From: Opitutales bacterium
GTDB lineage: Bacteria > Verrucomicrobiota > Verrucomicrobiia > Opitutales > PNEW01
NCBI GenBank assembly: GCA_965219535.1
Contig: CBDCNV010000002.1
Span: 1,200,001-1,232,000, forward strand
Direction: 5' to 3'
DNA: 32,000 nt
Each line of letters starts with the position of its first letter. Positions within the stretch are counted from its first letter, which is position 1. The position numbers were made by a program, and so were the translations under genes. Under the pieces are notes generated by a model that was given only the letters and a program-made list of their open reading frames with translations, made no database searches and was not told the origin of the DNA. Positions 6,245 through 23,269 of the stretch are shown here, piece after piece.

Positions 6245-6330
6245 TCTATCGATCAGTGTTAAGTTTTAGGTGTTAGGTTTTAAGTGAAGAATGAACCCTT
6301 CGGCTTAGCTCAGGGCAGGTAGGCCTTCCG

Positions 6331-6376
6331 GCTTGGAAGATGTCGTTCCGCGATAACGGAACTCGGAACCGGAACG
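6331..6376 (+). repeat. REP-A hairpin repeat, copy 3
   Basis: GCTTGGAAGATGTCGTTCCGCGATAACGGAACTCGGAACCGGAACG, between convergent genes. Confidence 0.85.
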
Positions 6377-6429
6377 TTGGCCTTCCTGTTCTCTGGCTTT
6401 CTGGTCTTCCGGCCCTCCGGCCCTCCGGC

Positions 6430-7296
6430 TCACCGGAGGATGCGTTGATCGCTTAGGTCTTTGCCTCCAACACTCTTCGTAATAGTTGCGCCGCGGTATT
6501 CCTTAATTTCTAGTTCATGAAAGGCGTTGACGATTGAGTACTGCGTTGGGAGGTCTTCCCAGCGAGCTTTATGAAACTGCACGGTTCCTTCTCCCTCCCA
6601 TGATTCTTGCATTTTGGAATTAGGTGTAGCTTCTGGTGTCATAACAATGTAATTGGCATCGGCAACTCCCCACTCACCCGTTCGAGGCATATACTTATAG
6701 TGCAGGATTCCTGTCAAAACATCACCGGCCTGATTATCAGCGTTTTGATCCACCGGTGGATCAGATGGGTTATTCATTTCCACGGGTTTCATGTTATGAA
6801 GATGCATATCCATAAACTTGAAGCCCAGCCAACTGGCAATACAATGTGTTTCTCCATCCAGCACCGTCGGCTCTGGTAGTTCGCAATAGATTTTAGAGAA
6901 ACCCAATTGCTCACGCCCTGTCAGTATCGGATCGGTTAAATTTTCCCAGAGCACGGTAAGAAAGCTGCCAACAGCGCGGTCCTGTTTTCCATTAAAAATA
7001 ACGGGAAAACTTACACCAAGGACATTGTATCCACGACCGGCCAACCATTCGATCTCTGTCATGTTGGTGGCATAAACGGTAACAATAGGTTCCTCACCAA
7101 GCTCCAGGCCCATGCCATCGGGGATCAGGGCGTCTAACTGTTCGCGATTGCTTAAGAAACTGACTGACCTCGACGTCACCTTGGGTGAGTCTATGCATTC
7201 GAATTTTCTTCCGTCCGGTCCCTGCCTCGGGCCCATACCCGGGCCAAAGTGTGTCGGCATCATGTACATTTTATTTGGATCTAATTTATAGGCCAT
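6430..7296 (-). CDS. Acetoacetate decarboxylase (ADC) family protein
   Basis: 288-aa ORF. The segment VIFNGKQDRAVGSFLTVLWENLTDPILTGREQLGFSKIY resembles the ADC-family core (V.FNG..G.Y ... GRE..G.PK). Assigned from memory of the family pattern only. Confidence 0.55.
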   Translation of the reverse strand: MAYKLDPNKMYMMPTHFGPGMGPRQGPDGRKFECIDSPKVTSRSVSFLSNREQLDALIPDGMGLELGEEPIVTVYATNMTEIEWLAGRGYNVLGVSFPVIFNGKQDRAVGSFLTVLWENLTDPILTGREQLGFSKIYCELPEPTVLDGETHCIASWLGFKFMDMHLHNMKPVEMNNPSDPPVDQNADNQAGDVLTGILHYKYMPRTGEWGVADANYIVMTPEATPNSKMQESWEGEGTVQFHKARWEDLPTQYSIVNAFHELEIKEYRGATITKSVGGKDLSDQRILR

Positions 7297-7308
7297 TGTG
7301 CTTACTCG

Positions 7309-8820
7309 TTATAATTTATTTCGCTTGGATAAGGTTGAGGGAAAGTCTTGAAGATCCAAATTTTTATCGAGCGGATAGATAGGGCGGCGAACATTTTTGT
7401 AGTCGTAGCTCAATAGATTTGGACTATGCACACCGGGTGTATCGACTTCCAGAATTTCGTGTGCGAGGGGTGTGAAATCCGCGCGAAAGTGAACTGCGGA
7501 TTTGAGGACAATTATCTTCCGGTCCACGGGTTCAATACCGACGCTTCGTAGAACTTCGGCGTCAAAAGGTTGCGTCCGATTTTCAGTCAGGATGATTTCG
7601 ATACCACCGGTTTCAATTACTGCGGTTCGTCCCATTCCCGATTTTATTCCCCGGCTCATTGGGCCTTTGTGGACAAAACTTCCATCGGAAATTAATTTCA
7701 CATAACCATCAATTGCGACGGGTTCACCATGCCTGGGGTCTGTCTTGCCCCCAACTTGGAGTGAAACCGTGTTACCGACACCTGCTTCAATCGCGAGATT
7801 AACGGATTCAGGATCAGTAATGATCGCAAAAACCGCGTCCTGCACTCCAGCTTCAATAAATGCGCGGAGAATATGCGTACCATCACAGGGCGCTCCACCA
7901 CCGGGGTTGTCCGATCCTTCAGCGAGCACGATCGGTTTTCCTTCAGTCTTATTGGCGTGCGCGATGGCCTCATCGATCGAAACAAGGTTGCCCTGGAATG
8001 CTTCTCGAATTTTCCACACGTGGCTTGAAAATTCATCGGCCAATCTATCGGCAAGCGCTTGATCATTGTTTGTCGTCACCAACACCGTTACGCCGGCAAT
8101 AGAAATGTCGGCAAAGGGAAATCCCATTGACAGGGTCGCGGTCTCCACTCCGGGCCCCTCTTCGAGAGCGTGAAGTTTTTCCATAACGGCAATCATCGGC
8201 TGTTTCATCGTGCACTGACCGGGTGGTGACGTCAGCAATGGAAGCTGTCGGTAAGCCATTGTCGGCACAACTTTACCTTCGATGACTTTATGCAGCAATT
8301 GTCCGGCCTCGTACCCGCGATCATACATATCGATATGCGGATAAGTATCGTACCCTATAATGACATCGGAAAATTCTGCCATTTTAGGTCCTATATTTGC
8401 ATGGAGATCAAGCGTTGTGACTATGGGTATTGCGCCGACATATTCGCGAACAGCAGCAATTAAATCTGCCTCGCCGTCTTCGATTTCTTCCACCGCCATC
8501 GCCCCGTGCAAATCAAGAAGAACGCCGTCAAGATTTCCTGCATTGTGCAGTATTTCCATGAATTCAGATTTGAGAGTGTCGTAGGCAGAATGCTCCACAA
8601 TTCCTGAGGGAGTGGCGAAAGTCCAGAGGAGGGGAACGAGCTCGATACCTCGTTCCTCAGCGGCGTCCATGTACCCGCCCATGATCGTGTTCGTATTTCT
8701 AAAGACCGGGAACATTTCCTCGCCAACATAATACTGCCGTTCCTTGAAACTATCAATCGTCGTCGGGACTAGGGAAAAGGTATTGGTTTCATGTCCAATA
8801 CAGCCAACAGCTATTTGCAT
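7309..8820 (-). CDS. M81-family metallopeptidase (MlrC-like, microcystinase C family)
   Basis: 503-aa ORF. The N-terminus IAVGCIGHETNTFS is the characteristic MlrC N-terminal domain signature, and length and layout fit the family. Confidence 0.8.
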   Translation of the reverse strand: MQIAVGCIGHETNTFSLVPTTIDSFKERQYYVGEEMFPVFRNTNTIMGGYMDAAEERGIELVPLLWTFATPSGIVEHSAYDTLKSEFMEILHNAGNLDGVLLDLHGAMAVEEIEDGEADLIAAVREYVGAIPIVTTLDLHANIGPKMAEFSDVIIGYDTYPHIDMYDRGYEAGQLLHKVIEGKVVPTMAYRQLPLLTSPPGQCTMKQPMIAVMEKLHALEEGPGVETATLSMGFPFADISIAGVTVLVTTNNDQALADRLADEFSSHVWKIREAFQGNLVSIDEAIAHANKTEGKPIVLAEGSDNPGGGAPCDGTHILRAFIEAGVQDAVFAIITDPESVNLAIEAGVGNTVSLQVGGKTDPRHGEPVAIDGYVKLISDGSFVHKGPMSRGIKSGMGRTAVIETGGIEIILTENRTQPFDAEVLRSVGIEPVDRKIIVLKSAVHFRADFTPLAHEILEVDTPGVHSPNLLSYDYKNVRRPIYPLDKNLDLQDFPSTLSKRNKL

Positions 8821-8822
8821 CC

Positions 8823-8859
8823 ATCGATTGTCGATTTTCGAATGTCGATTGTCGATTGG
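8823..8859 (-). promoter_or_regulatory. AATCGAC word array immediately upstream of the MlrC-like start codon
   Basis: The sense strand reads CCAATCGACAATCGACATTCGAAAATCGACAATCGAT and ends 2-3 nt before the ATG at 8820. Confidence 0.4.
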
Positions 8860-8871
8860 ATAATGTTAGAA

Positions 8872-8889
8872 GATCAAAAAGTTAAAAGA
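8872..8889 (-). promoter_or_regulatory. Degenerate TTTTRAC array upstream of the MlrC-like gene
   Basis: The sense strand reads TCTTTTAACTTTTTGATC, about 52 nt upstream of the ATG. Confidence 0.35.
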
Positions 8890-9005
8890 TTCAGAATGAA
8901 ATATTCACTGGCAATTTTCGTAATTCGTACTCTCATGAATCAGTCTCATTCGATCGCGCACCTGTCGTCCATAGTCCAACTGTCACAGTCAATGACTGCA
9001 CGCGT

Positions 9006-9458
9006 TTAATTCAAAAGATAAATACAATTACCTAATCCCAATTGGCCGATAAATATACCGCTGCTGAGATCTCCATCATCAATCTTCATGTCTATGGACA
9101 AAAGTTGAGCAGCTGATATAGAGTAGCCATTTACCGTAATACTGCCGCTTATACCATTAAAATTATCCCAGTCCCACATACCTCCAATGGTGGTCGATTC
9201 GGTCCATGGAAAATCTTTTAAGTAATAAGCCATACCATCCGGCACCACGGATACAACGGCATCAGGTGGATAGACTCCTTTATCAAAGCTGTAAAATTCA
9301 AATGCATTGCTAACCACTTTAATGTCATTTAAAAAGCGATTTACTTTCGTCGAATCGATTATCTTAAAGAACGCCGGTATCGCCGCGCTCATCAATAATC
9401 CGATCACGGTAATCGCGATCATGATTTCAACTAAAGTAAAACTCTTTTTACTTCTCAA
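9006..9458 (-). CDS. Prepilin-type N-terminal cleavage/methylation domain protein (pseudopilin-like)
   Basis: 150-aa ORF. The N-terminus MRSKKSFTLVEIMIAITVIGLL carries the canonical prepilin motif. Confidence 0.85.
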   Translation of the reverse strand: MRSKKSFTLVEIMIAITVIGLLMSAAIPAFFKIIDSTKVNRFLNDIKVVSNAFEFYSFDKGVYPPDAVVSVVPDGMAYYLKDFPWTESTTIGGMWDWDNFNGISGSITVNGYSISAAQLLSIDMKIDDGDLSSGIFIGQLGLGNCIYLLN

Positions 9459-9560
9459 AACGTAACTGATTTTAATTAGGGGATAGTGGGGTTTTAACTA
9501 CGTCGCAAAGATTATATGATATATTACTCTCAAAAGCAATATGAAAATCCTGACAAACAG

Positions 9561-9598
9561 TACCGAGTTCCGCAATCGCGGAACGACATCTTCCAAGC
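9561..9598 (-). repeat. REP-A hairpin repeat, copy 4 (inverted orientation)
   Basis: TACCGAGTTCCGCAATCGCGGAACGACATCTTCCAAGC is the reverse complement of the REP-A unit. Confidence 0.85.
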
Positions 9599-9784
9599 TG
9601 GAGAGCACTGATCAGTTATCAGTGAACAGTAATCAGTAGTAGAAAGGATGAATGGATGGATGGAAGGTTGTGTTTTAAAATATTATCATACATTCATCCA
9701 ACCATCCAGTAACCGTTGAACCGTGAACCCAGAACCCTCTTACCTAACACCTAACACACGCGTAGACGCTATCGCGCGTTACCG

Positions 9785-10864
9785 TTAATTCTCAATCAGC
9801 GGCGCTCCGTCGCTGCGACGCTGACGGGGATGATGATGGCGACCTGAGAGCAAGTCAGCAGCGGTCCACCCTAATTGACCGTGACGCACGACACCATAAC
9901 GGATGATGGACTCATCGGTGAAAGGGCGAACATTCGGTATATCAATCCAGATGCGCAGTAAGAGTCGTTTGAGTGATTCGTCGTCAACCGGTTCATGGGC
10001 GGCCCGACCATGCATCACAAGGTAGTTATTACAAAATTGAATATCACCTGATGGAAATTCAAATTCAAATCGGTTTTCAAATGTCATTTGATCGATGAAG
10101 TCCAGGACTTCAGTCTCCTCTGGTGTAAATTCCTGACCCCTTCGTTCGAATCCCTTTCGAATCCAAGCCCGATTGTAGCGACATGATAATATTCCTTCCT
10201 CCTCGCTAAAAAAAGGGACGGCATAGTTTGATGTAGGCGTTTCGCCATCTCCTTCTTCATCCTGACGATCCCAAATAAAACCATTAAACAATCGAGGAAG
10301 GTATTCCGGATGCTGTCGCAGTATTTCATTAAATAGAGATGTAGAACTGGCAGCGTAACTGAGTGGACTATCAGGGGGTTGACGGACAGAGAGCAGAGAA
10401 ACACAATCTGTCAGATCGTTGTGGAGCGAAGCCGCTCGAGGATTACCTACTCTACGCGCGCCTTGTTGTGGCTGCAGGCGTCCATCGGTGACGTATTGGA
10501 CAAGGTCTCTCTGGCTGTTCTGCGTGACACCGACACCGAGATGGGCGCAGAGTCCCCAATAGAGCATTACCAGATCTTCCAAATTATATTTGTCTACCGG
10601 GAACCCATGCATTAAAGCAAAGCCGCGTCCTGTTCTCAGTTCGTCTTGAATCTCTTTCAGCGTAGGTTCAAGAACAGGAAGAGGAAAATTATTAGGTGTG
10701 ATCTCAGCCAACTGCAATTCAAGTCTTTTTACGCTTTGCAGCGCGTTATCGAGATCAGCTAAATGATTATCAGACAAGGTATGTTCCCAGGATCTATCTT
10801 CCATGAGATCGTTTTTCCTCCACGCACTGGAATCCGTCACCGGTTCTGTCCTTACTACGGTCAT
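9785..10864 (-). CDS. TauD/TfdA-family Fe(II)/2-oxoglutarate dioxygenase
   Basis: 359-aa ORF with the HxD motif in SLHNDLTD and a distal His in NNYLVMHGRAAH. Size and layout fit the family. Confidence 0.75.
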   Translation of the reverse strand: MTVVRTEPVTDSSAWRKNDLMEDRSWEHTLSDNHLADLDNALQSVKRLELQLAEITPNNFPLPVLEPTLKEIQDELRTGRGFALMHGFPVDKYNLEDLVMLYWGLCAHLGVGVTQNSQRDLVQYVTDGRLQPQQGARRVGNPRAASLHNDLTDCVSLLSVRQPPDSPLSYAASSTSLFNEILRQHPEYLPRLFNGFIWDRQDEEGDGETPTSNYAVPFFSEEEGILSCRYNRAWIRKGFERRGQEFTPEETEVLDFIDQMTFENRFEFEFPSGDIQFCNNYLVMHGRAAHEPVDDESLKRLLLRIWIDIPNVRPFTDESIIRYGVVRHGQLGWTAADLLSGRHHHPRQRRSDGAPLIEN

Positions 10865-10963
10865 TATTTTTAATGAATATATATTAAAGATAAACGGTCA
10901 ATCACCTTCAATATTGCTATAAATCGTGGTTGGGATCAGTGAGAAAGTAAATGCGTGCATTGA

Positions 10964-10996
10964 GTCAAAATGTCAAAAAGTCAAAAGGTCAAAAGG
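10964..10996 (-). promoter_or_regulatory. TTTTGAC(C/T/A) octamer array (4 units) upstream of the TauD-like gene
   Basis: The sense strand reads CCTTTTGACCTTTTGACTTTTTGACATTTTGAC, about 100 nt upstream of the ATG at 10864. Confidence 0.5.
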
Positions 10997-11087
10997 TTGG
11001 TGCTCTAACACAAGTTAAATTACTAATCACTGCTTTCCGGCCTTCCGACACGCTGGCTATCCGGTCTTCAGGCTTTCCGGAACGCTG

Positions 11088-11129
11088 GCTTGGAAGATGT
11101 CGTTCCGCGACGGCGGAACTCGGTACCGG
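11088..11129 (+). repeat. REP-A hairpin repeat, copy 5
   Basis: GCTTGGAAGATGTCGTTCCGCGACGGCGGAACTCGGTACCGG, 12 nt from the stop of the enolase-superfamily gene. Confidence 0.85.
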
Positions 11130-11140
11130 TTTTCCGGTCC

Positions 11141-12229
11141 TCAGGTTTCCCGGTATGGCGCAAGCGACTCGTAGTTGGGGTCAATGCCAATTCCCGGTAC
11201 GTCAGGTGGGTTCACCGTTCCATCCGCATTAAGGTTTAGGGTATGGAGAAATATTTTACCCCACATGGGATCAACGGTATCACGGTAAAACTCCAGAATC
11301 AGACCGTTGGCAATTGCCGCAACGAGGTGGACATGGATCTCCTGCGGACCGTGTGGCGCGATGTCCAAATTATAAGCGGATGCCAGTGCCGCTACTTTCA
11401 TAAACTCAGTTACACCGCCAAGTATAATCGCATCGGGATTAAAAATCGCCACTGCCTGCTGGGCGATCAGGTCACGGAATCCGTACCGGGTATATTCGTT
11501 TTCACCGGTGGCGATAGGGATCGAAGTGGCCGCCGCCAGTTTGCGGTGGCCCTCATAGTCGTCTGCGGCTACGGGTTCCTCAAACCAAAAGACATCGTAC
11601 TCCTCAACCTGCTTTGCTAACTGGATGGCCTCGTAGTAACGGTAGGCACAGTTAGCATCGATCATCAGTTTAATCTCAGTTCCAACAGCATGGCGGACAG
11701 TTTTTACTCGCTCGACGTCTTCACGGATTGAGACTCCGCCAACTTTCATCTTAATCGCCTTTGCTCCCATCTCGAGGCTCGTTATCATTTCCTCAGCCAG
11801 CTCTTTAAGACCCTTGCCTTCTTCATAGTACCCACCGGCGATATAGGTTGGGACGCGATCGCGATAGCCGCCCAGTAATTTGTAAAGTGGCATGCCGGCA
11901 ACCTTTGCCTTCAGGTCCCATAAACCGATGTCAATAGCGCTGATCGCACGGGTAGTCATGCCCCGTCTACCAATCAGTTTTGGAACCCACATCTTTTCCC
12001 ACAGGCGTTCAGCATCCAGTGGGTCTTCACCAATCAGTTCCGGCTTGAGATACTCAACGGTGGCTTTAGTGATGGGGTTTATGTCACCCAATCCGATTCC
12101 TGTTTGTCCCGTATCAGTTTCGATTTTAACCAGCCCCAGGCTCGCGTGAGTGTAAGTATGCTTGCCATTGGTAATCGGTATAGTAAGCGGCCAGCGATAG
12201 CTCTCGGTGGTGATTTCTGTAATTTTCAT
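11141..12229 (-). CDS. Enolase-superfamily enzyme (mandelate racemase / muconate lactonizing family, acid-sugar dehydratase-like)
   Basis: 362-aa ORF with IKMKVGG (KxK), MIDANCAY, FEEP and ATGENEY metal-ligand motifs. Confidence 0.9.
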   Translation of the reverse strand: MKITEITTESYRWPLTIPITNGKHTYTHASLGLVKIETDTGQTGIGLGDINPITKATVEYLKPELIGEDPLDAERLWEKMWVPKLIGRRGMTTRAISAIDIGLWDLKAKVAGMPLYKLLGGYRDRVPTYIAGGYYEEGKGLKELAEEMITSLEMGAKAIKMKVGGVSIREDVERVKTVRHAVGTEIKLMIDANCAYRYYEAIQLAKQVEEYDVFWFEEPVAADDYEGHRKLAAATSIPIATGENEYTRYGFRDLIAQQAVAIFNPDAIILGGVTEFMKVAALASAYNLDIAPHGPQEIHVHLVAAIANGLILEFYRDTVDPMWGKIFLHTLNLNADGTVNPPDVPGIGIDPNYESLAPYRET

Positions 12230-12401
12230 AACTCAACCTCTATAATTGTTCCACTGTGATTGCGACCGCGTGTTGACAAACGCTGATCTATGAAGAGATA
12301 AATATTACATAAGATACAACCTGCAATCTTAATCCTTTCTTCCCTTTAAAACATAACACGTAAAACCTAAAACGCGCGCTAGCGCTCCTTCGACTTTCGA
12401 C

Positions 12402-13177
12402 ATGATTTCAAAACCTATGCTGGTTGACTTGAAAGGCAGACATGCACTGGTGACGGGTGGTGGGACGGGTATTGGTAGCGCGATTTCGATTGGTTTGGCA
12501 CGTTGTGGTGCAAGTGTCGTTGTAAATTATTCGCGCAGTGAAAAAGGCGCGGAGGAAACGGTTGAATCGATAAAAGCTGAGGGGGGTAGGGCGATAGCGG
12601 TAAAAGCGGATTTAACCGATGAAGATCAAGTCGAGCAACTGGTGGATTCTTCTCTCCATGAATTCGGCGGTTTACATATTCTCGTGGCGAATGCTGGAGG
12701 GCCTACCGAGCATAAACCCACCGTTGATTTAGAGGAAGAAGATTGGAATCGAGGAATGGGAATAAACTGCAAATCAGTTTTTTACTGCGTAAAACACACC
12801 GTTCCTCATTTGCCTGATACTACCGGTCGGATCATTGTTAATTCTTCCGGCAGCGCGCGATCGGGTGCGGGACCGGGAATGATTACCTATGCCGCATCCA
12901 AGGGCGCGGTTAACAATATGGTGCGCGGTTGGGCCAAGGAATACGGCGCGCGCGGTATTACGGTAAATGCGATTGCGCCCGGCCCCATCTGGACTCGAAT
13001 ATTTAAAGGTAACATCGATCAGAAAGCATACGATGAGATTATTGCCCGCAGCCCCCTGGGTCGCTTGGCGAACCCGAAGATTGCGTGGGCCCAGTGCTCT
13101 TGCTCGCCAGTGACGATGGCAGCTACATTAATGGCCAGGTCATCGAAGTCGGTGGAGGAATAATCATGCCGTCATAA
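12402..13177 (+). pseudogene. Classical SDR oxidoreductase with an apparent 1-nt deletion (frameshift) near 13060..13070
   Basis: Frame 0 gives TGGGTGIGSAIS, NAGG and YAASK, then a nonsense tail LANPKIAWAQCSCSPVT. The -1 frame from about 13066 reads LGEPEDCVGPVLLLASDDGSYINGQVIEVGGGIIMPS*, the canonical SDR C-terminus, ending at 13177. Confidence 0.75.
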
Positions 13178-13283
13178 GTGGATGTGTGTATGCGAGTATG
13201 CGTGAAAGCGAAAAAGTGTGAATGCGTGAATGCGCAAGATTCAGGATACAGAATAAAGTTAATCCTGGCAATTCCAGCATTTC

Positions 13284-13306
13284 TTTTGACCTTTTAACTT
13301 TTTGAC
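13284..13306 (+). promoter_or_regulatory. TTTTGAC/TTTTAAC array upstream of paralog 1
   Basis: TTTTGACCTTTTAACTTTTTGAC, about 100 nt upstream of the ATG at 13407. Confidence 0.45.
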
Positions 13307-13406
13307 TATTCTCTCCGCTTTATCGCTTATACGCATTCACGCATTGTCGCTCCTTACCTTTTGTGGCTATCTCCTTCTAATCTAATTAAATAGCAAGAAG
13401 GTTTGA

Positions 13407-15095
13407 ATGAAAGAATTGCCTGAGAAAAAAACCCCGACTGAATCGCTTGATGTACGGCGCCGGATTGAAGAGACGATTGCCGGTACGCGGCCTATCGATG
13501 ATAACTACCCATATTTCGCGCCCGACTACACGGTACACACTTTACACATCGGCACGGAGAAGCAGTTGTTCCTAGATAATTTTATTCTCGATCACTTGGA
13601 AGCAGTCGAGCGTATCATCACCAAACCGGAGCGCCCCGATGCGCCTATTCTCAATGCCAGGGATCATCCCTGGGAGGTGGACGATGAAACTTTTCCCGCC
13701 GCCGCCCTCCATGATCCGGATGATGGTAAGTTCAAAATTTGGTACGTCCAATCTTCAGTTGATGAAGAAGATGTCGATAGGGCGTTTGGCGATTCAGGCA
13801 TGATTCTCTGCTATGCTGAATCGACCGACTGTCAACACTGGGAGAAACCTCTCAGTGAAAAGTGTCTCCCTTATAAAGAGCACAAAGCTACGAATATTGT
13901 TCTCGAAGATTCGGGCCACCACATTGCACTCGTTTTGAATCCCGATCAAAGCGATCCCGAAAGAAAGTACTTGATGGTCTATAACCCCCATGACTTGGCC
14001 CAATCGCGAGACCTCAAGTTCATGTCAACGATGGCCGTGTCACCCGACGGTCTGCGTTGGACAACGGTCAGCGAGGATTCAACGCAGCGTCATCACCATT
14101 TTCAGCGCGCCATCTGGGATGATTCGATAAATAAATGGATAACATACAGCCAGTACTCTCCTCACTGGAACTTTCTCCACCGCAAGCGACAGGTTGGCCG
14201 GCAGGAGAGTGAAGACTTTATTCACTGGTCGCCTAAAGAGGTGGTGCTCTCTGTGGATTGGGATCCCCACCTGCCGCCCAATGTAGAATTTCATGAAATG
14301 TCGGTACGAAAAGTGGGCGGTCTCTACATCGGAATAGCGACAGAATTTAATTCTGAACCGATCTGGGGTGCTTTTCGAGATGAGAATTGGCGCGATCATG
14401 CCTATGGGACCTTGAGTCTATATTCCAGCCGCGACGGTATTCGCTGGCAGCGGGCGAGTGGAGCTGAGCCATGGGTGGATACGGGACGGCCGGGAACTTA
14501 TGATTATGGGTTTGTCTGTGACACGGTTGCCGGGCAGCTCGTTCATAATGGAAGAACCTACATTGTTTACAGTGCGCGCACCGAAAAACAGAATTGGCAC
14601 GACATCGAGAGACCGGATGACAGGGGAGGTGAAGCATCATTTAAACCCGTGCCTGAATCAGTTTTTGAAAAAAGTAAACAAGACCATGCAAATTTAGCTA
14701 AATATGTTGGGAAATATCAGAAGTGGGATTATATAACGATCAGCACCCTTATCCTGCGCGAAGATGGTTGGGCGGAGTTGAAACCGACCTATGAAAATGG
14801 CAAGGTGATTACCCGGCAATTCGTCTTCGAAGGCGATACCTTAAAAATAAATGCCGAGGCCTATGGCGGGTACATTGAAGTTGAGATCGTCGATCCGCAA
14901 TTTAAACCCTTTGAGGGTTATTCCACTGAGGAATGTGATCCTGTCACCAGCGACGATCCCAATCAAATCTGGTACACCGTTAGTTGGAGAGGCAAATCAG
15001 ATGTGTGTGCTTTATGGAACAAACCGGTTCGCCTCGTCTTTCATCTCCATCAAGCCAGCCTCTACGCCTTCCAGTTTGTGGATAATAGCGTGTAA
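13407..15095 (+). CDS. Cytoplasmic glycoside-hydrolase-like beta-propeller protein with C-terminal beta-sandwich (paralog 1)
   Basis: 562-aa ORF with no signal peptide. The C-terminal GGYIEVEIVD...STEECDPVTSDD...VSWRGKSDVCALWNKPVRLVFHL..ASLYAFQF resembles the C-terminal module of GH32/GH43-clan enzymes. The family assignment is tentative. Confidence 0.6.
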   Translation: MKELPEKKTPTESLDVRRRIEETIAGTRPIDDNYPYFAPDYTVHTLHIGTEKQLFLDNFILDHLEAVERIITKPERPDAPILNARDHPWEVDDETFPAAALHDPDDGKFKIWYVQSSVDEEDVDRAFGDSGMILCYAESTDCQHWEKPLSEKCLPYKEHKATNIVLEDSGHHIALVLNPDQSDPERKYLMVYNPHDLAQSRDLKFMSTMAVSPDGLRWTTVSEDSTQRHHHFQRAIWDDSINKWITYSQYSPHWNFLHRKRQVGRQESEDFIHWSPKEVVLSVDWDPHLPPNVEFHEMSVRKVGGLYIGIATEFNSEPIWGAFRDENWRDHAYGTLSLYSSRDGIRWQRASGAEPWVDTGRPGTYDYGFVCDTVAGQLVHNGRTYIVYSARTEKQNWHDIERPDDRGGEASFKPVPESVFEKSKQDHANLAKYVGKYQKWDYITISTLILREDGWAELKPTYENGKVITRQFVFEGDTLKINAEAYGGYIEVEIVDPQFKPFEGYSTEECDPVTSDDPNQIWYTVSWRGKSDVCALWNKPVRLVFHLHQASLYAFQFVDNSV

Positions 15096-15231
15096 GCGGT
15101 AATGTGTGAACGCGATAATGCGTGAATGTACAGGGTTCAGGATACAGGATTCAAGACGACATGTAATCTTAACAATTTTCGCATTCTCTCATTTTCGCGT
15201 ACACGCATTTACGTATTTAAAGGCATTTCCT

Positions 15232-15270
15232 TTTTGACCTTTTGACCTTTTGACCTTTTGACTTTTTGAC
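15232..15270 (+). promoter_or_regulatory. TTTTGAC(C/T) array (5 units) directly upstream of paralog 2
   Basis: TTTTTGACC TTTGACC TTTTGACC TTTTGAC TTTTTGAC, ending 7 nt before the ATG at 15278. Confidence 0.55.
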
Positions 15271-15277
15271 TTACGTA

Positions 15278-16954
15278 ATGACAGAAAAACCTGAGAAAAA
15301 AAACCCGACTGAATCGCTTGATGTGCAGCGCAGGATCGAAGAGACGATTGCCGGCACGCGGCCCATCGATGACAACTACCCTTATTTCACGCCCGATTAC
15401 GCCTTACACAGTTTACACATTGGCACGGAGAGGCAGTTATTTGTTGATAACTTCATTCTCGATCACCTCGAAGATGTAAAGCGTGTCATATGCAAGCCCC
15501 AACGACCGAAAAATCCAATCTTCAAGTCGAGGGAACTACCCTGGGAATTGAAACCGGGTATTTTTCCTGCCGCGGCTCTCCAGGATCCGGATGACGGCAA
15601 GTTCATGCTCTGGTACTGCCAATCTTATGTCGGTGGAGCCTGGGGTGATTCGGGTATGATCCTTTGTTATGCCGAGTCACAGGATTGTCGGCATTGGGAA
15701 AAACCACTCAGTGAAAAATGTTTCCCTTATAAAGAACACAAAGCAACCAATATCGTTCTTGAAGATTCCGGTCATCATATTGCCCTGGTGGTGAATCCCG
15801 ACCAAAGCGATCCCGCACGTAAATTCATGATACTTTACAATCCTAATGACAAAGCGCAGGAGAGAGGGCAAAAAACAATGTCGACAGTGGCCGTCTCGCC
15901 AGACGGCTTGCAATGGACCACCGTCAGTGAGGATACGCCGATGCGCCATCATCATTATCAACGCGCGATCTGGGATGATTCGATAAATAAATGGATTGCT
16001 TACAGCCAGTATTCCCATCACTGGAACTTTCTCCACCTAAAGCGGCAGGTTGGCCGGCAGGTGAGTGAGGACTTCATCAATTGGTCACCTAAAGAGGTGG
16101 TGCTGTCGGTTGATGGTGACCCCCATTTACCGCCCAATGTAGAATTTCATGAAATGTCGGTGCGCAAGGTGGGTGGTCTCTACATCGGCATCGCGACAGA
16201 ATTTCACTCCGAACCGATTTGGGTTGTCGGTAAGACACGGAATTGGCGCGACCAGGCTTATGCGAACTTAAGTCTCTACGTCAGTCGCGATGGAATACAC
16301 TGGCAGCGGGCAAGCGGCTCGGAGCCATGGGTAGATAATGGACGGCCCGGCAGTTATAATAGTGGATTCGTAGCTGCTTCGGTTGCCGGGCAACTTGTCC
16401 ATGACGGTAAAATCTACATCGTCCACTCTACAGGTCCTAAAAAACAAAGTTGGCACGGCCGACCACCGCAACCGAAATATAAAAACATTCGCCCACTGCC
16501 TACAACCTTTGTGCCCGAAGAAAATTTTGAAAAAGGGGATCGCGATTACGCGCGCCTGGTTGAGAATATGGGTAAATTTCCGAGGGAAGATGGAGGGATC
16601 AGCACCCTCATCCTGCGCGAAGATGGCTGGGCGGAGTTGAAACCAACCTATGAAAACGGCAATGTGATTACCCGGCAGTTTGTCTTCGAAGGCGATACCT
16701 TAAAAGTAAATGCGGATGCCTATGGCGGATACATTGAGGTGGAGATAGTTGATCCTCACTTTAAACCCTTTGCCGGTTTTTCCACTGAGGACTGCGATCC
16801 CGTGGTAAGTGACGATCCCAATCAAATCTGGCACACCGTCAGTTGGAAAGGGAAATCAGATCTCTCCGCACTGTGGAACAAGCCAGTTCGCCTTATCTTC
16901 CATCTCCATCAAGCCAGTATTTTTGCATTTCAGTTTGTGGATAAGCAGGGTTAA
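15278..16954 (+). CDS. Glycoside-hydrolase-like beta-propeller protein (paralog 2)
   Basis: The track ORF starts at a TTG (15266) inside the repeat array. The ATG at 15278 gives MTEKPEKKNPTESLDV, aligning with MKELPEKKTPTESLDV of paralog 1. The two are collinear and roughly three-quarters identical by eye. Confidence 0.6.
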   Translation: MTEKPEKKNPTESLDVQRRIEETIAGTRPIDDNYPYFTPDYALHSLHIGTERQLFVDNFILDHLEDVKRVICKPQRPKNPIFKSRELPWELKPGIFPAAALQDPDDGKFMLWYCQSYVGGAWGDSGMILCYAESQDCRHWEKPLSEKCFPYKEHKATNIVLEDSGHHIALVVNPDQSDPARKFMILYNPNDKAQERGQKTMSTVAVSPDGLQWTTVSEDTPMRHHHYQRAIWDDSINKWIAYSQYSHHWNFLHLKRQVGRQVSEDFINWSPKEVVLSVDGDPHLPPNVEFHEMSVRKVGGLYIGIATEFHSEPIWVVGKTRNWRDQAYANLSLYVSRDGIHWQRASGSEPWVDNGRPGSYNSGFVAASVAGQLVHDGKIYIVHSTGPKKQSWHGRPPQPKYKNIRPLPTTFVPEENFEKGDRDYARLVENMGKFPREDGGISTLILREDGWAELKPTYENGNVITRQFVFEGDTLKVNADAYGGYIEVEIVDPHFKPFAGFSTEDCDPVVSDDPNQIWHTVSWKGKSDLSALWNKPVRLIFHLHQASIFAFQFVDKQG

Positions 16955-17386: not shown

Positions 17387-18490
17387 ATGAAACAATCACT
17401 TGCACCAGCCTCGGCGAATGGAGCTCATGAACGGACGGCTATTTCTCTTATCGATAGCGACGTCCACAATTACCCCGATTCGGTCGATGAGTTGATGCCC
17501 TATTTACCCGACAGGTGGCAGGCCTACATCAAGCAGTCGGGATTCAAGAGTCCGCCGGGGCCCGTCTACCCGAAAGGTTTTGATATGGCTGCGCGCCGGG
17601 ACGCCTGGCCGCCTAACGGAAAAAAACCGGGAAGCGATCCAGTCTTTGCAAGCCGCCAATTGCTGGACACATGGGGAATTGATCGGGCAATTCTTAATCC
17701 GCTATATGGAGTGTCGGCAGTGTTCAACCTTGACTTTGCCAATGCGCTGATGCGAGCGGTCAATGACTGGACAGCGAATGACTGGCTGAGTACTGATGAG
17801 CGCTGGCGAGGATCGATCGCAGTCAACGTGTGTGATGCTGCAAGTTCGGCCGAGGAAATAAAACGGGTGGCTCGTGACCCCCGCTTTGTCCAGGTGCTTT
17901 TACTCGTGCGTTCACATGCGCCCTATGGTCGACGTGAATTTCACCCCATTTTTCAGACGGCTGCCGAAGTGAATCTACCGATTGGTATTCATTTTGGTGG
18001 TAACGGAAACCCGATTACGGCATGCGGATGGCCTTCTTACTACATTGAGGACCACACCGCCATGGCGCAGGCATTTCAGGCCCAGGTTGTCAGCCTTGTA
18101 TGCGAGGGCGTGTTCGAAAAATATCCTCAGACACGGGTCTGTCTTATAGAAGGAGGCTTTGCCTGGCTGCCACCACTGATGTGGCGTCTGGACAAAAATT
18201 ACCGGGGATTGCGCAGTGAAGTGCCCTGGCTCAAGAAGCTACCAAGCGAGTACATCCAGGAACACTTTCGCGCCACGACCCAACCGATGGAAGAGCCGGC
18301 AAATCCCGAGCACCTGATGCAGATCATCGAGATGATCGGTCGAGATGACTTTCTCCTCTTTGCCACCGATTATCCTCACTGGGACTTCGATGCCCCGGAC
18401 AAGGCGATACCGGCCATCGTGCCGGATGCTTTACGCCGACGCATCATGGTTGATAACGCCGCGGACTTTTATGACTTCGAGCGAGCTTGA
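17387..18490 (+). CDS. Amidohydrolase_2-family metal-dependent hydrolase/decarboxylase (ACMSD-like fold)
   Basis: 367-aa ORF with IDSDVHNY (the metal-binding DxH at strand 1), a later HFGG, and a C-terminal FATDYPHWD typical of PF04909-type proteins. Confidence 0.8.
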
Positions 18491-19739: not shown

Positions 19740-20114
19740 ATGAGTAAAAGTACGGCCCAATATTGGAATGTTCTAGCGGCCTCGAACGCGTGTGCCTGGG
19801 AAACTATCGATGACACAGACGGTATGATGGAGCAGTTAACTTTAGCGATCGATGATGAAACAGGAGACTACACGCGACTGACACGATTTAAAGTGGGCAC
19901 TAATACCAAAGATTTTGGCAGCAAGTCACATGACTATCCGGAGGAAATATATATTATTTCCGGTCGTTTATACGATGAGGCTTTTGATAGGTGGTTAGAA
20001 GCGGGTCATTATACCAGCCGACCCCCCGGCGAAATTCATGGCCCCTTTATTTGTGAACAGGATTGTTTGGTCTTGGAGATCTCTTATCCAAGCCAGTCCA
20101 ATAATACATCTTAA
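19740..20114 (+). CDS. Cupin-domain protein (ChrR-like cupin)
   Basis: 124-aa ORF 19 nt after the PhyH gene, with the HDYPEEIYIISGRLYD ... PPGEIHGPF cupin pattern. Confidence 0.7.
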   Translation: MSKSTAQYWNVLAASNACAWETIDDTDGMMEQLTLAIDDETGDYTRLTRFKVGTNTKDFGSKSHDYPEEIYIISGRLYDEAFDRWLEAGHYTSRPPGEIHGPFICEQDCLVLEISYPSQSNNTS

Positions 20115-20277
20115 CAGGTATATGTAGTAAGCGGTTCGCTCACTTTGTTAGCTGGACGATGTTGACGCGCTGTTACAATCGATAGATGAAGTTCTCCGAG
20201 TAGTAAGAACCAATGGTGTTGGACCTTTAATCATTAATCCAACAACTAAATAAGTATCTATAAAGTATAAGCTAAAT

Positions 20278-20541
20278 TTAAGCGGCTATTATACTTGAAC
20301 TATTCTCATCACAAACGACTCGGATTTTACCCCCGTTGGTGGCTTCCGCTTTTAGATGTGTTGCCGCGTAGTCTAAGGAATTCGGATTTACGAGGTGTGT
20401 TTCTTCTCCGCTCGTCTCACTGAGCATAACTTTTTTCGCTTTGCCCCATGAGTAAAAGGTAGAGACAACATAATATTGAAAGGTTAAGATTAGAACACCA
20501 GCCATTACCCATAAGATTGGGAGCATATTTGTTATTTCCAT
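20278..20541 (-). CDS. Small single-pass membrane protein, unknown function
   Basis: 87-aa ORF with one hydrophobic helix (MLPILWVMAGVLILTFQYYVVSTF). It lies in AT-rich DNA and has no recognisable motif. Confidence 0.35.
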   Translation of the reverse strand: MEITNMLPILWVMAGVLILTFQYYVVSTFYSWGKAKKVMLSETSGEETHLVNPNSLDYAATHLKAEATNGGKIRVVCDENSSSIIAA

Positions 20542-20975
20542 GATTATTGTTTTTATTAGGGTTTATACTTTATTTCTTGATACTTAATTAATAAAATAGC
20601 CATTTATTTCGTTTTGTATAGCTAAAATTCATAGTTTTTTTTTTTTATATATAATATAGGTAATATACACTATATTTATCATACTTAACTGTTTACAGTT
20701 ATTTGTAGAGGTAAAGAATGATTGAGGGGGGCTTAATTTAGCTGATAACCACTCAATCTCGCTTGATTGGCACTACGGCTGGTGAGTGCTATATTGAGCC
20801 CTCAGAAAAAAAGTGAATTTAAATAGATTAATCCACCTAATTATCCAATGAATGCCTTATGCCGGCATCCGCTCGTCACCCTGTTAAATTCTAATCGGTG
20901 CCCTATAAATATTTTATGATCTTTAATTCGCAAAAAAGAAATAATATTTTTATCACTTAAAAGATGTAGAGGCTG

Positions 20976-21440
20976 ATGAAAAATTTTTCAATGAATATAT
21001 ACCGTTCGATAAAGTTGCACTCCGGTAATTGTGCAGCAGCAACGCTTGTCGAAGTCATGGTCAGCGTAGTCATTTTCGGACTCGTCTTCGGCGCGGTCGC
21101 CTCTGTCCTCACACAGGGATATATGATCATGGAAACCGCGCGCGATAATACCCGTGTCTCTCAAGTGCTCCAAAGCGAAATTGAAAGACTGCGCTCCATG
21201 AGTTGGGCTGATCTGGATGGCTTGCCTAGTCCACAGCAGTACGTACCCCAATCGGGATTCAATGTTGCATTCAACAATCGCTATCAATGCACGAGAGTTA
21301 TCAATGCGCGCAAACCTGACCAAAAAGAGATTATCTTAACCGTCATTTGGGACGACAGTAAATCGATTAATCATGTGCGCCAGTTTGTTACGTATTACAC
21401 TAAGGAAGGATTAAATGACTATTTTTATCGATCGTTTTAA
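20976..21440 (+). CDS. Minor pseudopilin-like protein (GspI-like position), degenerate prepilin N-terminus
   Basis: 154-aa ORF. AATLVEVMVSVVIFGLVFG is a prepilin-like hydrophobic helix containing the conserved Glu. First gene of a tightly packed three-gene set. Confidence 0.6.
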   Translation: MKNFSMNIYRSIKLHSGNCAAATLVEVMVSVVIFGLVFGAVASVLTQGYMIMETARDNTRVSQVLQSEIERLRSMSWADLDGLPSPQQYVPQSGFNVAFNNRYQCTRVINARKPDQKEIILTVIWDDSKSINHVRQFVTYYTKEGLNDYFYRSF

Positions 21441-21966
21441 AAGTGTTCAACGACTGAAAAACCGGGCATTTACACTGGTGGAAGTGTTGATTGCAGTCAC
21501 TATCTCGATGATAGTAATCGGTGGAATTTCATCCGCCTTTTTAGTCTTTGCAAAAAGCACGATGAGCCTGGCTAACTATGCTGATATGAATGGTCAAAGC
21601 CGGACATTTTTAGAGCGTTTTGGAAGAGACATGCGAATGGCAGAAAAAGTATGGGTAGCAACCAGCGAGCGTATAGCGATCGATATTCCCATAACGGGTG
21701 GCAGCACAACCATTGATTATATTTTCGACCCGGACAACAAAAGGGTTCTTAGAGATGTGAATGCTGTGCAAATACCCGTTCTTAATAATGTTGAGGAATT
21801 TGATGTAACTTATTTTAATTTGCAGGGTAATCCGACTACCGCCTTGCTGGAAATTAAAGATGTTCAACTTGAAGCCAGAATTATGAAGAATGTTCTCTTT
21901 ATAGAAAATACTAATCAGATTGTTTCGGCGCGGTTTTTAATGCGAAATCACACCGTTAGTAACTGA
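21415..21966 (+). CDS. Minor pseudopilin (GspJ/PulJ-like), prepilin-type N-terminal domain
   Basis: 183-aa ORF with NRAFTLVEVLIAVTISMIVIGG. It overlaps the upstream gene by 26 nt. Confidence 0.75.
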   Translation: MTIFIDRFKSVQRLKNRAFTLVEVLIAVTISMIVIGGISSAFLVFAKSTMSLANYADMNGQSRTFLERFGRDMRMAEKVWVATSERIAIDIPITGGSTTIDYIFDPDNKRVLRDVNAVQIPVLNNVEEFDVTYFNLQGNPTTALLEIKDVQLEARIMKNVLFIENTNQIVSARFLMRNHTVSN

Positions 21967-21970
21967 TACG

Positions 21971-22368
21971 ATGAAAAATAGACAAACAATAATGCTTAAT
22001 AAAACTCGGGGTGCGGCTTTAGTCATTGCTGTCGTCTTTACTTTAATCATGTCAGCCTTGGTTGTCAGCTATCTCATAATAGTGAAAAATGAATTAAAAG
22101 CATCGAACCGTTTTTCGCTCTTTTTAGAAACCCTAAATATAGCTGAATCTGGAGTAGAAGAAGTTGCCTGGGCACTCAATAATAATGATTGGACGGATTG
22201 GGATGAAACGGGGATATATAAAGAACGAACATTAGATGGTTTTAATCTGAGCGCGAATAAAACGGGAAGCGTCACTATAATCGTAGAGGATTTTGCCAAC
22301 GATCCAACCGTTTATGCCGAAGGACATGTGCAAACTGTAGGTGGAGACGACATTAAAAAGCAAATTGA
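21971..22368 (+). pseudogene. N-terminal fragment of a GspK/PilX-like large minor pseudopilin, interrupted by the IS element
   Basis: RGAALVIAVVFTLIMSALVVSYL is a GspK/PilX-type N-terminus. The ORF continues into the IS (to 22480), producing a chimeric tail. The reading frame resumes at 25255. Confidence 0.8.
22361..22368. repeat. Left copy of the 8-bp target-site duplication, CAAATTGA
   Basis: An identical octamer lies at 25247..25254, immediately outside the other inverted repeat. Confidence 0.85.
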
Positions 22369-22390
22369 GGTAGTGTCTCAGTTTGAATTT
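22369..22390 (+). repeat. IRL of the IS1-family element
   Basis: GGTAGTGTCTCAGTTTGAATTT is the exact reverse complement of 25225..25246. It begins GGTRRTG like IS1 ends. Confidence 0.9.
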
Positions 22391-23220
22391 TCATCAATCA
22401 GGCTAACGATCCAAGCTATATCATGCAATTCGTTAGTCAAACCTGCTTCCATTGCCGGTGTTACTTTTAATGTCTTGTGAATACGAACAAAGTTATAATG
22501 CACGAAATACAGCGACAGCATGTGCAGATGATTTTCCAGTTTCTTAGAAAACGCATTTGTAAGCCGTGTAAAGCGTCTCATTCCCATATGCATAGATAGG
22601 TTGGAACGTTCAACATGTGACGTGCTCACAGCCGACTTGTCAGGTTTGCCAGCGATCAAATTCTTGTGTGTTCCTTTGCATACCGAAGGGCTATATTTAC
22701 GATCATGGCTTTGGCTTGAATCATCACTATAAAGCTTTACTAGTTGTGCATAGTCAACATCTCCCCCAAATGCCCCTTCAATAGCCTGTAAATAGGCACG
22801 GTGACCATCTGTAGTGAGTTGCACACGGTTTGCCAGACGTGACCGCAAATCAGACATAAAATCAAGAGCAGTATCAGCGGAGCGGTCACCCACTTCGTAA
22901 GACAAGATCATCTTGCTGGTGCTATCAAGAGCCGTCCAGGTCCAGACATCACCTGCATCTTGTGGTGCGGCCTTAGCGGTAGGAATATTTTTGTCCTTAG
23001 CGTAGCAGAATGACCAGATTTCATCACACTGGACACGCCGGGCTTTTACGTTGCGAACCTTCTCATTATGATAGGCAGCACAAGCTTTGCCAGCGTCTAC
23101 AAGTAGCTTGGTCACCGTGTTGATTGAAACATCCACAGTTCGGGAGATTGACCGCATGGACATACCTTCAACCAGCATCGAAAGGATCATTACGCGTTTT
23201 TCTAAGGGCAGTTTGTTCAT
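22378..23220 (-). CDS. IS1-family transposase (single-ORF type, HTH + DDE)
   Basis: 280-aa ORF with the N-terminal HTH MSMRSISRTVDVSINTVTKLL. Candidate DDE residues lie in QCDEIWSF, TTDGHRAY and VERSNLSMHMGMRRFTRLTNAFSKKLENH. The last matches the IS1 InsB pattern IERxNLxxRxxxxRLxRKxxxFSK. Confidence 0.85.
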   Translation of the reverse strand: MNKLPLEKRVMILSMLVEGMSMRSISRTVDVSINTVTKLLVDAGKACAAYHNEKVRNVKARRVQCDEIWSFCYAKDKNIPTAKAAPQDAGDVWTWTALDSTSKMILSYEVGDRSADTALDFMSDLRSRLANRVQLTTDGHRAYLQAIEGAFGGDVDYAQLVKLYSDDSSQSHDRKYSPSVCKGTHKNLIAGKPDKSAVSTSHVERSNLSMHMGMRRFTRLTNAFSKKLENHLHMLSLYFVHYNFVRIHKTLKVTPAMEAGLTNELHDIAWIVSLIDENSN

Positions 23221-23269
23221 GCCCTTAATATCGTATAATGACCCTTATTTATCAAGCATTAATTTCACT

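Follow-up and report, generated by a model that had tools for sequence, protein, structure and literature searches.

Oriented TTTTGAC octamer arrays at coding-sequence boundaries in a marine Opitutales clade

Introduction

The way in which start codons are located by ribosomes in the many bacterial lineages with little Shine-Dalgarno (SD) pairing is the question raised by a 32,000-nucleotide stretch of DNA from an Opitutales bacterium (Verrucomicrobiota; assembly GCA_965219535.1, contig CBDCNV010000002.1, positions 1,200,001 to 1,232,000), referred to below as the window. Tandem arrays of the octamer TTTTGACY stand before several of its genes. An original prediction, made from the letters of the window alone, considered two roles for them, either phased binding sites for a regulator of a catabolic gene island or U-rich translational enhancers in an organism with weak SD usage. 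The finding is considerably larger than this prediction supposed. The arrays are a lineage-wide family of oriented tandem octamers that punctuates coding-sequence boundaries in a marine Opitutales clade, with similar arrays in Planctomycetota, and not a code specific to one island.

Arrays in the window

The octamer TTTTGACY occurs exactly 16 times in the window, whereas 100 dinucleotide-preserving shuffles yielded a mean of 3.42 occurrences (standard deviation 1.82, maximum 9) and none of them reached 16. Arrays with a period of 8 were located with Tandem Repeats Finder and with a separate scan of our own (Table 1). The five clear arrays and the degenerate one first reported before the MlrC gene are real, the latter without a single exact TTTTGACY unit, and the lone unit before a PhyH remnant is also present. 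A seventh site, likewise degenerate, was added before a gene of the short-chain dehydrogenase/reductase (SDR) family. Every array site is intergenic and has its T-rich strand in the sense orientation relative to the gene that follows, with 0 to 100 nt between the last GAC and the ATG. Pfam places the genes that follow in the SDR, MlrC/M81, TauD and PhyH families, and two tandem paralogs of 560 amino acids have no family. In the two assemblies of this locus that were compared, the window and L001 (sampled loci are cited by such numbers), the arrays are identical at all sites.

The five-unit array before paralog 2 is unpaired in both the minimum free energy (MFE) and the centroid structure predicted for the RNA of positions 15096-15295, and its orthologous sites contain 2-5 units with the 7-nt gap unchanged. 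Paralog 1 possesses its own SD-like AAGAAGG, and the array upstream of it sits in the loop of a predicted hairpin made by GTGAATGC and GCATTCAC arrays. The array at 3737-3760 is represented in L114 by four units at 23 nt from the start, and the architecture upstream of the PhyH gene is kept in L115 (2 units) and L108 (3 units). The added site at 12389-12401 is preceded by a GCGCTAGCGC flank, as are the arrays of relatives. Its orthologs read TTCGACC TTCGACT TTTGAC in L115 and four TTTTGAC units in L114.

The original prediction also held that the arrays always lie upstream of genes and on their sense strand. This holds inside the window but not beyond it, where mirror copies abut stop codons. 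On the same contig just outside the window, such mirror-image arrays occur at -1226..-1197, 32938-32951 (-) and 33035-33056 (+) in window coordinates, and two of the three form an inverted pair between convergent genes.

Arrays in related genomes

The comparison set comprised about 0.5 Mb, drawn from relatives and from the window's own contig. Among GTDB representatives, the closest genome is the Opitutales metagenome-assembled genome (MAG) OY829953.1, with 74-89% identity over two shared segments. A scan of representative genomes for two and a half units returned at least 112 loci; among the matches listed, most were from OY829953.1, a second Opitutales MAG, and several Phycisphaerae and Planctomycetaceae MAGs. 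A scan of Joint Genome Institute (JGI) metagenomes for four units followed by TA gave 26 marine loci totalling 250 kb. A 560-aa paralog and two other window proteins led to orthologous loci in species whose proteins are 95%, 89% and 85% identical, and to the flanks of the window's own contig. Gene boundaries were drawn with a codon-usage model, complemented by caller-free tests that used long open reading frames (ORFs) only.

In relatives, the canonical form of the array is (TTTTGACN)4-TA-N5-8-ATG, preceded by a c/t-rich flank. The unit consists of the heptamer TTTTGAC and one free eighth base, repeated every 8 nt except for an occasional unit of 7 nt. The heptamer is kept across species at about 74% nucleotide identity while the flanks diverge. 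Arrays of four units plus TA lie on the start side in 24 of 27 cases, and the start spacing peaks sharply, at 7 nt for both the MAGs and the window's lineage and at 8-9 nt for the metagenome loci. Within the sampled loci, 54 of 245 long genes (22%) have at least two units within the 50 nt upstream. The genes preceded by arrays include those for MutS, leucyl-tRNA synthetase (LeuRS), an NtrC-type regulator, a GcvT-like protein, an M19 dipeptidase, a SASA esterase, EVE-domain and PNPOx proteins and many PhyH paralogs.

At gathering thresholds, Rfam gave no match in the window and only a cobalamin riboswitch, unrelated to the arrays, in 17 related loci. No account of these arrays was found in the literature on the motif, on octamer repeats, or on promoters and leaders of the Planctomycetes-Verrucomicrobia-Chlamydiae (PVC) group, nor was any bacterial description of an oriented octamer array at a fixed start-codon spacing or of mirror copies at stops. 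Looking for the motif itself brought up PCR primers only.

Much longer T-rich octamer arrays with drifting units (9-30 units; TTTCGAC, TTAGAC, CTCGAC, TTTTGTC) were observed in L012, L011, L030, L033, L076, L102 and L014. Their hosts are Bacteroidales, Labilibaculum, Alcanivoracaceae and Planctomycetota, so that the repeat class is widespread beyond Opitutales.

Orientation and the stop-side copies

Orientation and position relative to genes were examined in the relatives with a caller-free test, which asked whether the start of a long ORF, or the end of a long ORF on the opposite strand, lies within 40 nt of one side of an array. In the two Opitutales MAGs, a coding-sequence boundary was found on the GAC side of 45 of 58 arrays and on the T side of 2. 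The corresponding counts were 73 and 4 among the 91 arrays of the 26 metagenome loci, and 15 and 2 among the 26 arrays of Planctomycetota. Together with the shuffles, these counts confirm that the motif is an oriented, non-random cis feature. The bias toward the GAC side is strong, and it is not confined to gene starts. More generally, an array has its GAC end toward a coding-sequence boundary, and the upstream, sense-strand rule of the window is a special case.

Among the unselected arrays of the metagenome loci (n = 64), 26 are on the start side and 21 are at the stop codons of genes on the other strand; for the MAG arrays (n = 58), the numbers are 22 and 23. In the metagenome loci, stop-side arrays lie from -1 to about 23 nt from the stop and mostly have two units. 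The genes that they follow are real and complete as judged by Pfam, and include DNA polymerase III delta', ExbB, an amine oxidase and an ABC transporter. The array at the stop of the ABC transporter gene is kept in both the window genome and OY829953.1 despite different downstream neighbours.

Start-side and stop-side arrays may also face each other as inverted pairs. Such pairs number 13 among the 91 arrays of the metagenome loci, and none lies inside the window. Five inverted pairs were folded and gave near-perfect stems of 22-30 bp with dG from -24 to -55 kcal/mol and z from -2.0 to -7.5; for four of the five, dG was -38 kcal/mol or lower and z was -5.2 or lower. Some pairs lie between divergent genes, and several transcription units carry arrays at their two ends. 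Covariation between the two arms at the free eighth base was confounded by the general T/C consensus and was not used. The cores enclosed by 11 pairs share only chance matches of 9-14 nt, while their lengths cluster at 75-79 nt. Because the enclosed cores are unrelated in sequence, a miniature inverted-repeat transposable element (MITE, for instance a Correia-like one), which the TA ends and inverted arrays had suggested, is ruled out, as it also is by the ABC-transporter array that was kept when its neighbours changed.

Start-side arrays and translation initiation

SD motifs are hardly enriched in the sampled genes. GGAG or GAGG occurs at -18..-4 in 18 of 245 genes, compared with 13 of 245 in a control window, in agreement with the weak SD usage that had been suspected. 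The array is itself no SD sequence, since UUUUGAC, as its letters show, lacks a GGAGG-type match to the CCUCC anti-SD. A 16S rRNA gene, sought across 1.2 Mb of sequence for complementarity to GUCAAAA, was not found. Its distance from the start codon (modes of 7 and 8-9 nt) nevertheless matches the SD-like spacing of about 5-10 nt. A gap of 7-9 nt leaves no room for an SD sequence between array and ATG, and hence the footprint of the 30S subunit must cover the array if it is transcribed.

Arrays and SD sequences are alternatives at orthologous genes. For paralog 1, the window has an array at -100 and the SD-like AAGAAGG, L114 has an SD sequence and no array, and L115, without an SD sequence, has four units 7 nt from the start. 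In six homologous upstream regions, which contain 2, 3, 4, 4, 4 and 5 units, the flanks have diverged, but neither the final two units nor the 7-nt gap varies. The number of units differs (5 vs 3) between orthologs at 95% protein identity, and recently duplicated intergenic regions of L115 differ only by 2 vs 4 units and by one other small repeat. Slippage alters the unit number, and the gap to the ATG does not change with it.

The start codons themselves provide further evidence. A perfect inverted repeat of at least 6 bp surrounds the AUG in 11 of 50 array genes (22%) but in only 1 of 184 controls (Fisher p = 1.7e-7). The arms of these start-codon hairpins are 6-10 bp long, the AUG lies in a loop of 3-7 nt, and the 5' arm directly follows the array, although the sequences vary from gene to gene. 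Because the 5' arm is located in the spacer after the array, it can be argued that spacer and array are present in the RNA, and the array is therefore probably transcribed.

Based on the current evidence, we tentatively favour the possibility that ribosomes use the start-side copies as landing or standby leaders independent of an SD sequence, with the arrays as a whole forming a repeat family akin to the short tandemly repeated repetitive (STRR) elements and repetitive extragenic palindromic (REP) sequences. For start-side arrays only, the U-rich translational leader of the original prediction is the best available reading. The array would be transcribed as a 5' leader (its RNA is written here as (UUUUGACC)4) and would offer ribosomes a single-stranded, U-rich place to land or stand by, to which protein S1, or some other single-stranded-RNA binder with an oligonucleotide-binding (OB) fold, probably attaches. 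With this site in place of the SD sequence, the 30S subunit could capture the start codon, which in many cases is enclosed in a small hairpin. The units show hardly any self-complementarity, and the tracts measure 16-40 nt, against a single-stranded length of about 16 nt or more that is expected of standby sites. In Escherichia coli, unstructured repeat tails of at least 16-18 nt are standby sites with maximal effect (PMC5934652). An unstructured tract beside a structured start region is the standby geometry. In the window, arrays 7-35 nt from the ATG would work as standby sites, and those at about 100 nt may be upstream parts of leaders or relics. A stop-side copy could pair with the start-side array of the same intergenic region to form a hairpin of 22-30 bp, which may insulate or process read-through transcripts.

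Alternative explanations

Several observations weigh against standby leaders. From -45 to +20, the structure of array genes is not significantly weaker than in other genes (Mann-Whitney p = 0.09 for MFE; accessibility not higher), which leaves the simpler proposal of a leader that is just less structured than others unsupported, and the overall MFE of the start region does not differ from that of other genes. The start-codon palindromes could be the footprints of template-switch mutations and not selected RNA structures. Two of the window arrays are about 100 nt from the ATG, neither a consistent -10 element nor a positional TANNNT peak was found upstream of the arrays, and the stop-side arrays, about half of those not selected for, have no place in a leader model. 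Moreover, the strict conservation of GAC exceeds what an unstructured, U-rich tract needs and implies a specific reader. A bolder version, which we consider doubtful, is that (UUUUGACN)4-UA-N5-8-AUG is a sequence-specific, SD-independent start signal with a dedicated reader, and that the mirror copies complete a genome-wide code of gene punctuation in Opitutales and the PVC bacteria related to them. Candidates for this reader would be an OB-fold protein of the S1 or cold-shock type, each module of which binds one heptamer, or a stretch of rRNA not recognised so far. If true, this would be a third kind of bacterial initiation signal, beside SD sequences and leaderless starts.

Two rival explanations have to be taken seriously. 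Selfish or neutral STRR/REP-like repeats might have spread by slippage, template switching and gene duplication, with their placement reflecting tolerance only. The turnover of units is fast, presence and absence at orthologous sites are patchy, perfect inverted copies occur, many array genes belong to expanded families (PhyH and the 560-aa family), other tandem families of 7-8 nt (GTGAATGC, CAATCGR, GGAARGCC) fill the intergenic DNA of the same genome, and similar T-rich octamer arrays are scattered over several phyla. Tolerance, however, predicts neither the 73:4 orientation bias, nor the preference for exactly four units, nor the invariant gap to the ATG, and it accounts no better for a heptamer conserved across species with diverging flanks or for the alternation with SD sequences, so that we regard a purely neutral origin as fairly unlikely. 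It is also unlikely, by a similar weighing, that a sequence-specific DNA-binding protein coats 2-4 TTTTGAC units to form an oriented roadblock or insulator, which, like a gate open in one direction, stops RNA polymerase that leaves a coding sequence from entering the intergenic regulatory core. Polar roadblocks on DNA have parallels in the 'Sal box' terminator arrays bound by TTF-I at the flanks of rDNA units and in Tus-Ter complexes. Such a boundary would explain why GAC faces starts and stops alike whatever the orientation of the gene, how intergenic cores come to be bracketed, why the heptamer is strict and the eighth base free, and why cores of 75-79 bp have unrelated sequences. Canonical intrinsic terminators are also not enriched in the window (6 vs 12.9, 1 vs 3.3 and 4 vs 5.0 expected). 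Nonetheless, there is no known candidate protein, consecutive sites fall on different sides of the helix with a period of 8 bp, and the 7-9 nt start spacing, the alternation of SD sequence and array, the start-codon hairpins and the asymmetry between four units at starts and two at stops are left unaccounted for.

The remaining explanations are less probable. Inverted pairs, or arrays at the 5' and 3' ends of one mRNA, might pair into double-stranded stems that terminate or stabilise transcripts or steer RNase III, with single arrays as half-sites. The stems of 22-30 bp (z from -5 to -7.5) and the transcription units with arrays at both ends are in line with this, as is the precedent of cyanobacterial STRR hairpins between hupS and hupL, for which transcript stabilisation or translational coupling has been proposed (PMC2670836). 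Since most arrays are unpaired, and some pairs lie between divergent genes, whose transcripts are separate, RNA processing as the primary function appears improbable. A role in transcription initiation has still less to recommend it. TTGACY matches the sigma-70 -35 consensus, and with a gap of 7-8 nt the first of four units falls at -36..-31 of the ATG, so that unit 1 might be the -35 element and unit 4 a -10 surrogate for a leaderless mRNA that begins at the ATG; in the verrucomicrobium Akkermansia, about 10% of transcription start sites are leaderless (PMC4782308). Yet the promoters of Akkermansia have a canonical -35 element and TATAAT (PMC4782308), and positions 1-15400 and 25000-30000 contain 34 promoter-like matches, in none of which an array unit is the first hexamer. 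No sigma-70-like -10 element (A at position 2, T at position 6) was found 16-18 nt downstream of any array unit, the hexamer TTGACT at -12..-7 lacks the essential A at -11, the gap does not change in arrays of 2, 3 and 5 units, one in two unselected arrays is directed into the 3' end of a gene, and start-codon hairpins would require an upstream spacer in the RNA. With no -10 partner, no TANNNT peak upstream and many arrays only 7-9 nt from the ATG, a -35 or leaderless promoter is rejected as very improbable, as the original prediction had already argued for the -35 box. The least credible explanation is that prediction's leading idea of an operator array through which one transcription factor co-regulates a catabolic island. 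Seven sites do precede genes with related catabolic themes within 32 kb. In relatives, however, the arrays are genome-wide and also precede unrelated and housekeeping genes (MutS, LeuRS, NtrC-type, GcvT-like, dipeptidase and EVE-domain genes), and 22% of long genes in the sampled loci have them. An 8-bp period is not helically phased, as a phased set of regulator sites would have to be, and the stop-side arrays (21 of 64 in the unselected metagenome set and 23 of 58 in the MAGs) follow genes in the opposite orientation, which a model of upstream operators would not predict. The diversity of the genes and the stop-side copies rule out an island-specific operator, to which we give next to no weight.

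Other repeats and genes of the window

The arrays are accompanied by other repeats (Table 1). A second family, CAATCGR/AAATCGR, abuts start codons that lack an SD sequence. It is often found between the TTTTGAC array and the ATG, an arrangement kept across species before PhyH genes. Arrays of the GTGAATGC type directly follow the stops at 13163, 15095 and 16954 (the SDR gene and the two paralogs), and positions 13178-13234 pair with the GCATTCAC-type array at 13331-13346. Octamers richer in G and C (GGAARGCC, TCCGGCCC) directly follow other stops, at 6408-6429 and 29406-29452 and also after 11141 and 26173. Different repeat families seem to mark the 3' and 5' ends of genes in the window genome. 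A REP-like element of about 49 nt with a hairpin-forming core, GGAAGATGTCGTTCCGCG...CGGAACTCGG, is present in at least six intergenic regions, and a palindromic element, GGTGGAGCGGGCTG...CAGCGCGTTCCACC (or GGAACGCGCTGTCCCTAGCGCG), lies between convergent genes and is common to several species. The motif YTTGTGSC(n)TTTGTGGCTATCT occurs about 30-40 nt before many ATGs that have no TTTTGAC array, and may be a promoter or another leader module.

Table 1. Arrays, associated repeats and start-codon hairpins in the window and in sampled loci. Positions without a locus number are window coordinates.
Feature	Position	Strand	Composition	Last GAC to ATG (nt)	Context
Five-unit array	15232-15271	+	TTTTGACC x3, TTTTGACT x2	7	TTACGTA, then ATG 15278 of paralog 2; no SD
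Three-unit array	13284-13307	+	TTTTGACC TTTTAACT TTTTGACT	100	ATG 13407 of paralog 1
Four-unit array	10963-10994	-	TTTTGACC, TTTTGACT, TTTTGACA, TTTTGACT	99	TauD-family gene start 10864
Three-unit array	3737-3760	-	TTTTGACT TTTTGACC TTTTAACT	24	16-24 nt before SDR gene start 3721
Four-unit array	28511-28540	+	TTTTGACC TTTTGACT TTTTATCT TTTTGAC	35	PhyH ATG 28576; CAATCGR heptamers next
Degenerate array	8864-8889	-	TTTTAACT TTTTGATC TTCTAACA	~45-50	MlrC/M81 gene start 8820
Degenerate array (seventh site)	12389-12401	+	TTCGACTTTCGAC (TTCGAC-T-TTCGAC)	0	Abuts SDR gene ATG 12402
Single unit	26351-26358	+	TTTTGACT		28 nt before ATG 26386 of truncated PhyH-like ORF
Heptamer array	28547-28576	+	CAATCGR		Fills gap from octamer array to PhyH start codon
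Heptamer array	8824-8858	-	CAATCGA x5		Runs up to MlrC start codon
Heptamer repeats	26370-26385	+	CAATCGR/AAATCGR		Abut start codon
Heptamer repeats, other loci	L108 3661-3702; L115 7617-7660; L088 ~180-233		CAATCGR/AAATCGR		
Long imperfect hairpin	15096-15214	+	Inverted GTGAATGC-type and GCATTCAC-type arrays		Between paralog 1 stop and five-unit array; predicted MFE -45.9 kcal/mol, z = -2.3
REP-like ~49-nt element	3808-3904 (two copies); 6335-6352; 9577-9594 (-); 11092-11109; ~26200-26250		GGAAGATGTCGTTCCGCG...CGGAACTCGG		Intergenic
Palindromic element	1398-1408 and 1475-1496; L114 ~930-1010; L037 ~960-1040; L119 ~10930-10990, 17540-17620		GGTGGAGCGGGCTG...CAGCGCGTTCCACC or GGAACGCGCTGTCCCTAGCGCG		Between convergent genes
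Upstream motif	13350-13375; 29610-29635; L114 9960-9990; L116 9950-9980; L021 and L037 upstream regions		YTTGTGSC(n)TTTGTGGCTATCT		
Start-codon hairpins (examples)	L081 2369-2395; L127; L124; L129; L037 6410-6430; others		e.g. TATGACCC-ATG-GGGTCATA		AUG in loop

The tandem paralogs (13407-15095 and 15278-16954) share 76.6% nucleotide identity. Some homologs of this family of about 560 amino acids, which has no Pfam match here, contain PF22847. Three tandem copies are present in both L114 and L115, and homologs occur in MAGs of Chloroflexi, Latescibacteria, Planctomycetes and Armatimonadota. Positions 4037-6244 contain one ORF of 735 aa (Ig_7), which a 1-nt homopolymer difference splits into 395 and 345 aa in L001 (630-2838), probably as the result of a long-read assembly error. 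A low-GC island at 20000-25300 (0.36-0.42 vs about 0.48 elsewhere) interrupts a catabolic cluster that is contiguous in L114, and encodes prepilin-type N-methyl proteins, an IS1-like DDE transposase (22378-23220) and an SDH-protease/NfeD-like protein. The truncated N-terminus of a PhyH-like protein at 26386-~26500 (MLQRFASNYYL; the gene at 28576 has MSQRFESNYPL) has kept the upstream unit and CAATCGG repeats, and is a pseudogene remnant, as first proposed.

Implications

A discrete, conserved and countable module stands at SD-like spacing before about 22% of long genes and is interchangeable with the SD sequence at orthologs, which makes SD-free initiation directly testable in this clade. The mirror copies at stops and the 73:4 rule suggest that a dedicated repeat can mark coding-sequence boundaries in bacterial DNA. 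Consequences may be expected for the prediction of gene starts in PVC metagenomes, for transcript insulation and for the design of synthetic expression signals for Verrucomicrobia and Planctomycetes. Even if the arrays were neutral products of slippage, they would remain useful for marking precisely where genes start in these genomes.

Comparison with known systems

The cyanobacterial STRRs resemble the arrays in being tandem intergenic repeats of the 7-nt class, with high copy number, several families per genome and inverted copies that form hairpins (PMC2670836). All of these properties, namely tandem 7-nt-class units, intergenic location, multiple copies, multiple families and inverted hairpins, were found in the arrays. 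In contrast, STRRs belong to another phylum and have another unit, reportedly as given by Mazel et al. in 1990, while the arrays are from Verrucomicrobiota and the PVC group. To our knowledge, neither a strict orientation toward boundaries, nor a preference for four units, nor a fixed start gap of 7-9 nt has been reported for STRRs.

REP sequences, the bacterial interspersed mosaic elements (BIMEs) and the REP doublets forming hairpins (REPINs) are abundant, lineage-specific extragenic palindromes that often lie a few nucleotides from stop codons. Their inverted doublets form a hairpin around a poorly conserved spacer of fixed length (about 70-110 nt). The arrays are similarly lineage-specific and extragenic, lie near stops, and occur as singlets and inverted doublets. 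A REP unit, however, is an imperfect palindrome with a GTAG-type head, whereas the array is a direct repeat without dyad symmetry or such a head, and half of its copies are found at a fixed distance before starts. In the genome fragments covered, no RAYT (IS200/IS605-like) transposase of the kind associated with REP elements was seen.

Standby sites and U-rich enhancers bound by S1 share with the arrays a single-stranded repeat tract before a start that lacks or hides its ribosome-binding site. The known standby tails have no defined sequence, in contrast to a heptamer conserved genome-wide with mirror copies at gene ends. In Haemophilus influenzae, 7-bp repeats upstream of the hmw genes act as an expression rheostat (PMC12721329). 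These are also T-rich tandem repeats of 7-8 nt between promoter and start, with a copy number that varies by slippage (PMC12721329), and a unit number that varies between close relatives was likewise found for the arrays (5 vs 3; 2 vs 4). Nevertheless, rheostats of this type are restricted to a few surface-protein contingency loci and vary within populations, while the arrays stand at hundreds of metabolic and housekeeping genes and have a preferred unit number.

Other likenesses are more distant. In eukaryotic gene bodies, the content of short tandem repeats shifts just before starts and after stops, as a statistical landscape of mono- and dinucleotides without a defined, oriented octamer (PMC11686069). 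The sigma-70 -35 element (TTGACA) and the plant W-box (TTGACY) have the same hexamer, but the arrays have no -10 partner and lie too near the start codon. The likeness to the W-box is coincidental, as WRKY factors are eukaryotic. Overall, the defining features of SD sequences, -35 elements, REPs, MITEs and pathway operators are absent from the arrays. Their closest counterparts are the STRRs, the REP/REPIN elements, the standby tails and the repeats of the hmw type.

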